Sequence record: PQ571297.1
Reading direction: 5' to 3' (one strand)
Length of the DNA stretch: 27,524 nucleotides
Source of the DNA: Klebsiella phage KO-TP1
Shown here: positions 12,985 through 14,526 of the stretch, one piece after another
Layout: every line of letters begins with the position of its first letter
Position numbering within the stretch: the first letter of the stretch is position 1
Position numbers and translations under genes: made by a program
Notes under the pieces: model-generated
What the model was told of the DNA's origin: nothing
Databases searched by the model: none
What the model saw: only the letters and a program-made list of their open reading frames with translations

Positions 12985-13242
12985 CTACTTTTTGGCGTTC
13001 TGCTCAGCCATCTCAATGTAACGCGGATCTGATGCTCGGGGTAGTTGAATGCTCTGGTCGCGGTAGTAGCGGACGCGCTCCATGAAATACTCGCGCAGAT
13101 GCTCTGGCTGCTCTCTGGCCACCACTTCGGCGACAACCGGCATGTTCAGGCGCTCTTTGTAGGCTACGCCGGACGCGGCGAGGTCTACGTTGACCTTGTC
13201 CTGCTCGTCTTTCGATTTGGCTGCGATGTTCCACTGTGACAT
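12985..13242 (-). CDS. 85-aa hypothetical protein.
   Basis: AGAGGGGA Shine-Dalgarno 7 nt before the ATG at 13242. The longer 147-aa ORF in the track lacks a Shine-Dalgarno. The Shine-Dalgarno is embedded in a CCCCT-N9-AGGGG hairpin. Confidence 0.45.
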
Positions 13243-13594
13243 AAGAAAGTCCCCTCTAGTGCTAAGGGGATTATATATTATTGTGGTGCCAATTGTTCGA
13301 ACTTGCTGTGTATCTCCTAGAGGGTTTTCGCACAGATTCCGCAAAAAATTACCTGGCAAGTAAGTCTTGGCAACATTAGTTTCAGCAAGATTGGCCACGG
13401 CAGTTATTCCCTTTACGACTAACGCCATTGATACAGCAAAACGCGATTACGACTACGTCATGCTCTAAACCCTGTGACATCCAACCAAGAAGACCACTCC
13501 ATTGCTTCCAATTCGCATGGTTAACCGAACTTTCTACCTAGTCACCACCATTTACCATAAGATACAATCAGAAAAAAACCAAAGAGACTAACCG

Positions 13595-14389
13595 ATGCTT
13601 GAATCACTTAAAGAATATTTTTCCTCAATCGTCAATACTGCTGTAAACAGAATAAGTAACCCAGTGTTTGGTGCTTTCGCTATCTCATGGTGTGCATTTA
13701 ATTGGAAATCAATACTTTACCTTTTCCTAAGTGATTACGGTGTTTTCGACAAAATCAATTACATATCAACAAATAGTGACTGGAAAACAGTGATTATCTA
13801 CCCATGCCTATCAGTATTAGTTCTGTGCGGAGGACTACCATGGGTGAATAATATGATTTCAAAGTGGCAGGCTAAGCCACTCGACAACAACGACTCGATT
13901 GAGAACTTCAGGAAGGCAAAACTTATCCTTCGTGCCACGCGCCTTCAACGCCTCAAGGCAAAGCATGATGTTACATACGATAAAGTTAAGACTGGAGCTG
14001 AAAAGAACATTCAGGAGATGAAGGAGGAGATTATTCGATCAAAGAATAGTATGGGAGAACTAACTGCTGAATTGAAAGCCAAAGATGATGAATTGAGTTC
14101 TGCTAGTGCTCAGCTAGCAGAACTCGAACATTCATTAACACAAACATCAGAGACGCTTGGAAGAATGAACGAAGCTTATAAAAAACTTAAAAATGATTTC
14201 GATGAATATAAAATTAAATACCCTCCCAGGGCTGGATTAGGCACCCTTACCTTGTCCAATGGACAATCTGTTAGCGATTATATAGACCGTCAAGTATTGA
14301 CTGGACTAGCAAAAGAAGCTTCGAATATTTCCAAAAATTCTGCAACTCTAACTGGATTGTCGGGTTTAACGGGTAAAGATAAAGATTAG
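13595..14389 (+). CDS. 264-aa membrane-anchored coiled-coil protein, encoded on the opposite strand in the nin region. Function unknown.
   Basis: AT-rich gene flanked by minus-strand genes. Two N-terminal hydrophobic helices (VFGAFAISWCAFNW and VIIYPCLSVLVLCGGLPWV) are followed by about 120 aa of heptad-like coiled coil. A TACAAT -10 element lies upstream. No minus-strand ORF competes with it. Confidence 0.65.
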   Translation: MLESLKEYFSSIVNTAVNRISNPVFGAFAISWCAFNWKSILYLFLSDYGVFDKINYISTNSDWKTVIIYPCLSVLVLCGGLPWVNNMISKWQAKPLDNNDSIENFRKAKLILRATRLQRLKAKHDVTYDKVKTGAEKNIQEMKEEIIRSKNSMGELTAELKAKDDELSSASAQLAELEHSLTQTSETLGRMNEAYKKLKNDFDEYKIKYPPRAGLGTLTLSNGQSVSDYIDRQVLTGLAKEASNISKNSATLTGLSGLTGKDKD

Positions 14390-14526
14390 CATACGGGTCG
14401 TACTCGGTCAGTGCTTTGCCTTGTTGGTTCTACAGGCCCGGTATGTCAATCATCTTCTCCACTGGGAAAGCATACGTATGCAGCGGCGAATTAACCTTGC
14501 CCGGCGAGCGCCCTAACCGATCTTTG

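Follow-up and report, generated by a model that had tools for sequence, protein, structure and literature searches.

An imported moron cassette in the nin region of a Klebsiella lambdoid prophage encodes a predicted membrane protein that is a candidate exclusion or abortive-infection factor

The window analysed here is the whole stretch of 27,524 nucleotides from Klebsiella phage KO-TP1 (PQ571297.1), in which a Klebsiella-type lambdoid prophage bears a 264-aa gene on the opposite strand of its nin region. Alignments of the locus show that this CDS belongs to a mobile "moron" cassette of about 1.17 kb (13378-14543), and that the lambdoid nin region received a copy of it from an epsilon15/phiV10-like (Uetakevirus-like) phage, where it occupied the terminase-portal gap. 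Overall, the most likely function of the product of this imported, promoter-bearing cassette is to protect its lysogen from other phages, through superinfection exclusion or abortive infection, a reading to which we give slightly less than an even chance.

Results

An AT-rich gene antisense to a lambda-collinear series

A preliminary description of this DNA had drawn attention to a 264-aa, AT-rich, opposite-strand gene interrupting a lambda-collinear minus-strand series that runs from ren to ninB. Both observations are borne out: the ORF is present, with a GC content of 0.38-0.41 against 0.52-0.63 in its flanks, and the gene identities on both sides confirm the series. The genes of the locus are:

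10870-11559, minus strand: Q, lambda-collinear series
11556-12200, minus strand: NinG, lambda-collinear series
12356-12805, minus strand: NinB, lambda-collinear series
12985-13242, minus strand: theta (HOT-like) gene, 85 aa, divergent from the CDS (PF06440, E 3.6e-35)
13595-14389, plus strand: the CDS, 264 aa, PHROG 4780 family, within a larger uncharacterised superfamily
14610-15176, minus strand: phrog_492, lambda-collinear series
15227-15505, minus strand: ren-like wHTH, lambda-collinear series
15454-16248, minus strand: P, lambda-collinear series
16230-17309, minus strand: O, lambda-collinear series

The CDS is antisense to the Q-NinG-NinB-theta / P-O operon; it shares its strand with cI, the pR operon being on the other. 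The neighbouring 85-aa gene that had been pointed out earlier exists and can now be identified as a homologue of DNA polymerase III theta (HOT-like). A 147-aa extended ORF (12985-13428), in which the theta gene would have a longer N-terminus, was treated as spurious because no match was found for the additional 62 residues and homology to theta begins only at about residue 63-65. In the 352-nt spacer between the two genes (13243-13594) no second gene, Rfam RNA or tRNA was found. An internal restart of the SieB/Esc kind, at Met142 or Met153 of the CDS, was also considered and was rejected, as a properly spaced Shine-Dalgarno is not seen in the sequence.

Origin of the cassette

Homology across contexts is confined to about 13520-14542. 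Two features flank the gene:

13378-13594, plus strand: left flank of the cassette; its homologue in Uetakevirus-like prophages lies upstream of the gene
14388-14543, minus strand: TerL pseudogene remnant of Uetakevirus type, the last 52 codons, abutting the CDS stop codon

By homology both flanks are remnants of an epsilon15/phiV10-like terminase-portal gap, which is the commonest home of the family. The left flank is 70-76% identical (blastn) to the loci L035 and L041 and to many other TerL-portal slots; a small ORF of BUCT711 matches 13433-13498 within it (tblastn, E 2e-5), and a decayed terminator-like hairpin is found at about 13514-13536. On the other side, residues 440-491 of the BUCT711 TerL align to the remnant with 48% identity (tblastn, E 4e-10) and an in-frame stop. 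The window's own TerL (5905-7377) is of another family than the remnant, and in the source context a convergent TerL gene directly adjoins the CDS stop codon. The transfer occurred by illegitimate recombination, with fragments of the donor terminase still attached, and this stands regardless of what the gene does. A longer part of the window, 13004-14568, is 95.8% identical to the loci L058-L061, whose surroundings differ; judged by these alignments, the theta gene and the CDS are co-inherited in Klebsiella prophages as one block of about 1.57 kb.

Morons of lambdoid phages are said to have been described by Juhala et al. in 2000, and HK97 gp15 and lambda bor/lom are examples. Like them, the CDS is an extra gene of odd base composition with its own promoter, placed between conserved genes, present in some phages and absent from their close relatives. 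It departs from them in that no terminator-like site was found on the plus strand downstream of the gene (14390-14610) and in that the cassette keeps fragments of its former phage context; its protein family also differs from all characterised moron products.

Promoter and leader sequences

The signals around the start of the gene, and that of its divergent neighbour, are:

13539-13568, plus strand: putative sigma-70-type promoter, with -35 TAGTCA, an 18-nt spacer and -10 TACAAT
13581-13587, plus strand: Shine-Dalgarno-like AAAGAGA, 7 nt before the ATG
13250-13270, minus strand: 7-bp hairpin TCCCCTT...AGGGGA, followed by CUUUCUU and the theta ATG

The gene had been credited with its own -10-like TACAAT, and this is present at 13563-13568, with the -35-like TAGTCA starting at 13539. 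Three promoter-like matches were found against 2.8 expected in a shuffle test, so that a single match is no excess; the same promoter is, however, kept across unrelated contexts. In 18 aligned cassettes of different contexts the T, the A and the final T of the -10 hexamer are invariant, and the motif TACCTTAAAGGTAnAAT occurs exactly once per locus in 44 loci, always immediately 5' of the gene. The palindrome within the promoter is degenerate in the window copy, and AAAGG or AAAAGG stands in the aligned cassettes at the place equivalent to the Shine-Dalgarno-like sequence. The alignments show the putative sigma-70 promoter to have come along with the transplanted cassette.

Next to the theta gene, a CCCCT-N9-AGGGG hairpin had been proposed to occlude the Shine-Dalgarno of that gene. 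The hairpin exists (centroid -10.3 kcal/mol, z-score -2.4) and does overlap the theta Shine-Dalgarno, but it looks equally like a weak terminator; it may act in either of these ways. A pair of inverted 8-mers in the same region had also been offered as possibly regulatory. One of these, CTAGAGGG, is located at 13317-13324, not at 13312-13319, and the pair is one of 26 inverted pairs of at least 8 nt in 1.6 kb; it is therefore at chance level, and a regulatory role is unsupported.

Predicted architecture of the protein

The protein divides into two parts:

13595-14074, plus strand: N-terminal module, residues 1-160, conserved, as defined by alignments, hydropathy and charge, and the AlphaFold (AF2) model
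14075-14386, plus strand: variable C-terminal part, residues 161-264, with a distal coiled coil, a Ser/Thr/Gly-rich tail and a KDKD end

The N-terminal module consists, in order, of an amphipathic helix, an NP..GAF..SW..FNW motif, a marginal hydrophobic segment, a short acidic loop, a strong transmembrane helix and a conserved basic helix. Where two N-terminal transmembrane helices had been supposed, the second holds, since residues 66-84 are clearly hydrophobic and form a predicted transmembrane helix (Kyte-Doolittle 2.05); the first, residues 27-45, is only of marginal hydrophobicity (Kyte-Doolittle 1.1-1.3) and is broken by the conserved N36-W37-K38. The separate coiled coil of about 120 aa described at first becomes, in the structure prediction, part of a single helix: the AF2 model (pLDDT 86.9) has a small membrane module and one continuous helix of residues 63-208. 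The model used is the one built on a diverse alignment; that made from close homologues only is poor (pLDDT 63). As basic residues cluster after the transmembrane helix, with 10 Lys/Arg within residues 89-125, the stalk of about 120 residues is predicted to lie in the cytoplasm, where it would leave the small N-terminal membrane module as a single helix.

Against homologues, N-terminal codons 1-160 give a dN/dS of 0.05-0.09, with synonymous sites saturated. This ratio shows an N-terminal module under strong purifying selection, as of a gene that is functional and conserved. When the C-domains of 144 close homologues are clustered, 42 unrelated groups result, and of those pairs with at least 90% N-terminal identity 28% carry unrelated C-domains. 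It thus appears that the membrane-proximal 160 residues are constant while the distal coiled coil and tail are swapped among many types, at least 42 in number. Since coiled coils evolve fast, some of this C-terminal variability may come from low constraint.

Distribution of the family

The whole length of the protein matches PHROG 4780, a family of unknown function (E 3.3e-111; residues 1-264 align with profile positions 1-267 of 275), and the first 160 residues of the protein define a superfamily of 1,202 clusters at 50% identity (phmmer, E<=1e-3). Carriers include lambdoid, Uetakevirus-like and P2-like phages, phage-plasmids and plasmids. A 98%-identical protein is found in Klebsiella variicola, and every named member is annotated "hypothetical". 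Only 4 of 50,697 phage records match by tblastn; megablast against phages found none, and a scan of one genome per species gave no relative. A further word-index search of proteins, with the N-terminal profile as query, brought back only the close relatives. A profile built from diverse N-terminal domains proved too divergent for scanning loci. In a literature search by accession and keywords no paper on a PHROG 4780-type family was found. The earlier statement that lambda and its close relatives have no such gene here is upheld: it is absent from lambda, epsilon15, phiV10 and SPN1S, and E. coli strain 361 has other genes in the corresponding interval.

Of 53 close loci, the TerL-portal gap of Uetakevirus accounts for about 43 and lambdoid nin regions for 7, and all are antisense to the flanking genes where these are recognised; the wider family counts 27 Uetakevirus, 19 lambdoid and 1 P2-like loci. 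Each of the four sequenced Uetakeviruses examined has a different small antisense gene in its terminase-portal gap. Two distant members, P0204 and L085, are found in P2-like prophages in the interval from gpA to the portal gene Q. Judged by its positions, the family is always accessory cargo of temperate phages.

Comparison with known proteins and systems

Beyond the full-length match to PHROG 4780, the search for remote homologues gave no relative in Pfam, NCBIfam, PADLOC or the PDB. Only coiled-coil noise was obtained with the full protein against Pfam, NCBIfam and PADLOC, with the N-terminal part against Pfam and NCBIfam, and with 54 diverse members against Pfam. The best matches in PADLOC-DB 2.0 (E 7e-5 to 1e-3, residues about 84-224) fall on coiled-coil arms in SMC-like proteins (LmuB, JetC and DndD among them), and the matches of a PDB profile search were confined to coiled coils of the myosin and tropomyosin type; with Foldseek, viral structures yielded no match at E<=0.001. 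The Pfam, NCBIfam and PDB searches revealed neither an enzymatic domain nor a known pore-forming one. By these comparisons the CDS is outside SieB and every other known defence family.

SieB is expressed in lysogens and aborts heteroimmune phages. In lambda and P22 its gene (PF14163) is, like the CDS, an antisense membrane-protein gene with its own promoter in a lambdoid early operon; lambda sieB lies at 34482-35036 on the plus strand, inside the leftward minus-strand pL operon. SieB has N-terminal hydrophobic helices and a cytoplasmic remainder, an arrangement that is also predicted for the window protein. The analogy is one of arrangement and not of membership: SieB is without the long coiled coil or a swapped C-terminus, and its gene is in the pL operon whereas the CDS is in the nin region. 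Homology was rejected, since hhalign of the family profile against SieB gives a probability of 1.2%, and no match to PF14163 was found for the window protein, nor for its N-terminal part even at E<=10, where lambda SieB itself scores 1e-29.

ZorA of Zorya has a membrane-embedded N-terminal part and a long cytoplasmic helical tail, and resembles the predicted form of the window protein in architecture only; it is a far larger protein that acts together with ZorB, ZorC and ZorD, whereas the CDS has no partner genes and its product matches no PADLOC Zor model. The 2TM protein of AC1 "2TM+1TM+TIR" was suspected through a shared weak match to PF06785 and is unrelated on inspection of the sequences.

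The P2 gpA-portal locus houses old/tin and many validated defence systems, and the tested cargo of this hotspot is mostly antiviral (PMC9122126, PMC13586616). In two P2-like prophages distant members of the family form the main cargo of this locus, and they share with its known cargo (old, tin and the systems described by Rousset et al. in 2022) the form of AT-rich accessory cassettes of a single gene. None of the validated P2 hotspot systems is homologous to the family, however, and the window copy is in a lambdoid nin region and not in P2.

Discussion

That the gene might be an exclusion or Abi factor was first suggested from its layout, and from the hotspot location of its relatives and the membrane and stalk architecture the idea is therefore plausible. 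The support is circumstantial and comes from sequence comparison: the gene appears as accessory antisense cargo, it has relatives in the P2 hotspot, and a constant N-terminal module is joined to shuffled C-domains. Equally circumstantial, as an analogy, is the precedent of lambda sieB, an opposite-strand membrane-protein gene within an early operon. Non-defence cargo also occurs in phage hotspots and moron slots, which counts against a defence reading, as do the negative searches for similarity to known defence or exclusion proteins and for an enzymatic or known pore-forming domain.

If the protein does exclude or abort other phages, the conserved membrane module would be its anchor or effector, which could oligomerise into a leak or block a membrane step of infection, and binding of a phage component would fall to the variable cytoplasmic coiled coil, as the specificity or sensor end. 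The CDS lies on the cI strand, antisense to the pR operon. The lysogen probably transcribes it, and convergent, antiterminated pR transcription would probably silence it in lytic growth. It is also possible, and is put forward tentatively, that the family constitutes a new single-gene anti-phage system, with an undescribed N-terminal membrane effector and an exchangeable distal coiled-coil sensor coupled to it by the stalk. In such a system the rigid cytoplasmic helical stalk would couple effector to sensor and swaps of the C-terminal cassette would retarget immunity, while the promoter-bearing cassette would spread among lambdoid, Uetakevirus-like and P2-like phages and phage-plasmids.

Alternatively, the product may act in lysogenic conversion and have no part in phage defence, as a membrane-anchored scaffold that alters host envelope physiology with effects on cell division, stress tolerance or membrane organisation. 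We consider this unlikely: the P2 gpA-portal hotspot in which relatives are at home is dominated by antiviral cargo (PMC9122126), and shuffling among 42 C-terminal types fits conflict genes better than housekeeping-like scaffolds.

A weapon between elements of another kind, either a counter-defence protein or a factor directed against satellites or plasmids and not against superinfecting phages, would suit an accessory, shuffled gene found across the same range of phages, phage-plasmids and plasmids, and anti-defence genes too occur in phage hotspots (10.1101/2024.10.15.618418). Such genes are usually early lytic and on the sense strand, whereas the CDS is antisense, on the repressor strand, and this role appears distinctly improbable.

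Slightly more improbable still is a role in the phage's own cycle, in lysis timing or inhibition, or in membrane tethering of replication or packaging. The product is a predicted membrane protein, and the gene is found between terminase and portal in Uetakevirus-like phages and in the replication/nin region here. Nevertheless, it is absent from most close relatives, among them epsilon15, phiV10, SPN1S and lambda, its orientation is antisense to the lytic operon in every case, and the place it occupies differs by phage type. No holin, spanin or other lysis-family match to the product was found in Pfam or PHROG; the CDS, which is on the opposite strand and in pR-operon order precedes Q by about 2 kb, is well outside the Q-to-small-terminase region in which a lysis cassette is expected.

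Finally, a toxic membrane protein serving as an addiction or stabilisation module of the carrier element is very improbable, for although one plasmid copy adjoins a GNAT/DUF1778 toxin-antitoxin pair and an IS element, and small membrane proteins are frequent among toxins, the gene moves as a single-gene cassette with no conserved partner gene or antisense RNA, and a 264-aa protein with a long coiled coil does not resemble the known toxins of the membrane.

Whatever the function, the locus is a clean, dated case of a moron cassette crossing unrelated phage lineages, and the Uetakevirus-like terminase-portal gap emerges as a variable antisense cargo slot that could be mined like the P2 and P4 hotspots. 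If the exclusion or abortive-infection reading is true, a widespread gene would be added to the prophage defence arsenal of Klebsiella, Escherichia, Salmonella, Enterobacter and their relatives, one from a family of about 1,200 clusters with no enzymatic domain and a naturally modular specificity end, and it would be relevant to host range in phage therapy of Klebsiella.

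Genomic setting of the target gene

The target is a 264-aa ORF with an ATG start on the plus strand; at 0.38-0.41, its GC content lies below the 0.52-0.63 of both flanks. Its recognisable neighbours are all on the minus strand and in lambda order. These, and the genes found further out in the gene survey, are:

10870-11559, minus strand: Q
11556-12200, minus strand: NinG
12356-12805, minus strand: NinB
12985-13242, minus strand: DNA polymerase III theta (HOT-like) homologue, 85 aa, next to the target
13595-14389, plus strand: target, between the theta and PHROG 492 genes
14610-15176, minus strand: PHROG 492 protein
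15227-15505, minus strand: ren-like winged-helix protein
15454-16248, minus strand: P
16230-17309, minus strand: O
17950-18744, plus strand: CI-type repressor
26207-27370, plus strand: integrase
further out in the window, minus strand: head and packaging genes
further out in the window, plus strand: RecT
further out in the window, plus strand: methyltransferase

From this gene order and strand arrangement the window is therefore a lambdoid prophage, with the target on the same strand as cI and antisense to the pR operon. The preliminary description, which had placed an opposite-strand, AT-rich gene inside a lambda-collinear minus-strand operon, is borne out by strand, GC content and neighbour order, and its account of the target was largely correct.

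The gene at the ren position encodes a MarR-like winged helix that resembles Ren only weakly (PHROG 142, E 9e-4); the listed ORF runs about 50 nt into the end of P, and its true start is therefore probably further downstream. In the mechanical listing the theta ORF extends over 12985-13428 (147 aa), with a 62-residue N-terminal extension that lacks any match and is probably spurious. Other lambdoid loci, too, have a theta gene close to a family member (L058-L061, L070, L077 and L080).

The hairpin CCCCT-N9-AGGGG, noted earlier over the Shine-Dalgarno sequence of theta, is real (13250-13270, minus-strand RNA; -10.3 kcal/mol, z-score -2.4). Its 3' arm (AGGGGA) is 7 nt ahead of the theta ATG, so the ribosome-binding site can be occluded. 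With its 7-bp stem and the CUUUCUU that follows, it was also flagged by a scan as a weak terminator, and lambda nin regions contain terminators; the hairpin may be either an occluder of the theta ribosome-binding site or a weak terminator. A regulatory role for a pair of inverted 8-mers was not supported, since this is one of 26 inverted pairs of at least 8 nt within 1.6 kb and thus gives no signal; the second 8-mer lies at 13317-13324, five bases from the position first assigned.

A constrained family of hypothetical proteins

The target matches PHROG 4780 ("unknown function") from end to end (E 3e-111), and a 98%-identical protein in Klebsiella variicola is annotated as hypothetical. Some 200 relatives are spread over Klebsiella, Enterobacter, Citrobacter, Salmonella, Escherichia, Leclercia, Cronobacter and Pluralibacter; the names given to them are uninformative throughout, mostly "hypothetical protein". 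A query with residues 1-160, the N-terminal module, against 1.84 billion representatives matched 1,202 clusters (50% identity level) at E<=1e-3; in every case the matching part is N-terminal, and the proteins are 150-514 aa long. Named members among the more distant ones come from Serratia, Pantoea and Klebsiella, and plasmid-borne copies reach Vibrio and Leptospira. The family is thus already in the databases, as hypothetical proteins; Pfam, NCBIfam, PADLOC and PDB sequences gave no match past coiled-coil noise, and a literature search found no paper on it. For codons 1-160, dN/dS against homologues in other loci is 0.05-0.09, with synonymous sites saturated. It is clear that the target is a constrained, accessory gene.

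A predicted membrane-anchored helix with an exchanged distal end

Positions 1-160 are highly conserved in the close family (alignment A1), with the features NP..GAF..SWCAFNWKS, P70, LPW.NN and a basic helix, WQAKPLDNNDSIEN.RKAK...RATRLQRL.AKHDVTYDKVKTGAEK.IQ.MKE; past MGELTAE similarity drops abruptly. Superfamily-wide, only R19, P23, G26, W32, N36, W37, P70 and P82 are nearly invariant. Two N-terminal transmembrane helices had been proposed; hydropathy gives a single clear segment, residues 66-84 (Kyte-Doolittle 2.05), whereas residues 27-45 are marginal. The loop 46-62 is acidic and 10 Lys/Arg fall within residues 89-125, so that by the positive-inside rule the long C-terminal stalk is predicted to be cytoplasmic. 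The AlphaFold2 model on a diverse alignment (mean pLDDT 86.9) has helices at 2-19, 23-35, 37-45 and 50-60 as well as an uninterrupted helix at 63-208 and, beyond a linker of low confidence, a helix at 226-258. Structure searches returned nothing but generic long helices.

The N-terminal modules of 144 close homologues share a median identity of 76%, and the C-terminal parts (residues 161-264 in the target) fall into 42 clusters, most without detectable mutual similarity. When C-terminal pairs were scored as identity times coverage, with values below 30% taken as unrelated, 87% of pairs with 80-90% N-terminal identity fell below this threshold, and still 28% of those with at least 90%. Close N-termini joined to unrelated C-termini require, on these comparisons, recombination at the junction and not drift alone. 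What the target encodes is a predicted long helix, anchored in the membrane, whose distal end is shuffled.

A single-gene cassette with a predicted promoter of its own

The -10-like TACAAT that had been noted upstream of the target is present at 13563-13568, with TAGTCA 18 nt upstream. In 18 aligned cassettes conservation is confined to about 65 nt before the ATG and comprises the predicted promoter elements ATGACC, a 17-nt spacer and TAnAAT, in which T, A and the final T are invariant, and an AAAGG ribosome-binding site. Across 44 loci the exact motif TACCTTAAAGGTAnAAT is present a single time in each, in all cases shortly before the gene (about 26-43 nt upstream in L006-L051 and others), and includes a palindrome, TACCTT.AAGGTA, overlapping the -10. 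This could be an operator. The window copy, TACCATAAGATACAAT (13551-13568), is degenerate, with the palindrome partly lost.

In 53 IMG/VR loci with close relatives, the gene lies between the large terminase (TerL) and portal genes of epsilon15/phiV10-like (Uetakevirus-like) prophages in about 43 and in lambdoid nin regions in 7, always antisense to these flanking genes. Homology of the window to cassettes in other contexts is limited to about 13520-14542. Directly past the target stop codon, 156 nt (14388-14543, minus) code for the C-terminal 52 residues of a Uetakevirus-type TerL, interrupted by an in-frame stop (48% identity, E 4e-10); the TerL that belongs to the prophage itself (5905-7377) is of another family. 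Such a TerL fossil inside a lambdoid nin region shows directly that unrelated phage lineages have undergone illegitimate recombination with each other. Furthermore, the 217 nt before the target start (13378-13594) are 70-76% identical to the region upstream of the gene in Uetakevirus-like slots. From the remnant and this left-flank homology, this nin region received a copied block of about 1.17 kb out of a terminase-portal gap; the cassette has been transplanted between unrelated phage lineages, and the target moves horizontally as a single gene together with its predicted promoter. The block with the theta gene (13004-14568) is found at 95.8% identity in Klebsiella prophages with different replication and Q modules, and in an E. 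coli prophage five small minus-strand genes fill the theta-to-PHROG-492 interval instead.

Location in other phages and plasmids

In four sequenced Uetakeviruses the terminase-portal gap is occupied by a small gene that runs antisense to the structural operon and differs from phage to phage:

epsilon15 (L063), 2181-2546
phiV10 (L064), 2278-2649
TL-2011b (L065)
SPN1S (L066), 2190-2384

The gap is therefore a variable cargo slot, and looks like an unexplored cargo hotspot. In P2-like prophages, the interval from gpA to the portal gene Q is occupied by a 514-aa Pantoea relative (P0204) in one case and by a 320-aa relative (L085) in another. In P2 this locus holds old and tin and has been shown to be an anti-phage hotspot; most of the unannotated cargo tested, mainly from the equivalent P4 hotspot, was antiviral (PMC9122126, PMC13586616). 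On an SSU5-like phage-plasmid (L129, the 111-kb plasmid of K. pneumoniae; 4992-6035) a relative is the sole opposite-strand gene in a stretch, and on an IncF plasmid one adjoins a GNAT/DUF1778 toxin-antitoxin pair. Leptospira plasmids also have copies; on plasmid p3 of Leptospira interrogans (L131, 5025-5801) the neighbours are a DUF2971 protein and a group II intron.

Its presence on spirochaete plasmids and an SSU5-like phage-plasmid makes the N-terminal module's family much broader than Enterobacteriaceae.

Other genes were seen beside family members. In some Uetakevirus-like slots the cassette is preceded by a tRNA-Arg(UCU) of the same orientation (L001 5306-5382, plus; L003 3402-3478, plus); a small protein annotated there as "PHROG 4647" ends in ...GFEPATNRLEGGCSVQLS, resembling a translated tRNA gene, and so may be a spurious ORF. 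In the Pantoea P2-like prophage with the 514-aa member (L067), a NACHT/NB-ARC (STAND-type) protein directly beside the CI repressor (1-1513, minus) is a second candidate immune gene. A DinI-family gene (PF06183) adjoins the family member of a lambdoid nin region (L070 5929-6162, minus), and an unannotated 77-aa ORF, possibly DinI-like, that of a P2-like hotspot (L085 6337-6570, plus). DinI is listed in many P2 hotspot loci (supplement of PMC9122126).

Discussion

The target is antisense to lytic operons. It would be expressed from the cI strand in the lysogen and, during lytic growth, silenced by convergent pR transcription. Its function may tentatively be taken as protection against other phages, a reading to which we give slightly less than even chances; the membrane module would then serve as anchor or effector, with specificity residing in the variable coiled coil. 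The earlier guess of an exclusion or Abi protein is reasonable and has circumstantial support from location and shuffling; neither SieB homology (hhalign probability 1.2%) nor a PADLOC match past coiled-coil noise was found. Lambda sieB is likewise a plus-strand membrane-protein gene inside the minus-strand pL operon, an arrangement that parallels the target, although the two families are not homologous. A non-defence role in lysogenic conversion, another role in inter-element conflict, a function within the phage's own cycle and action as an addiction module are each less consistent with the location and shuffling data. Should the target prove to be a defence gene, it would join the familiar prophage-encoded membrane exclusion and Abi proteins as a new variant, set apart by its long helical stalk and exchangeable C-terminus.
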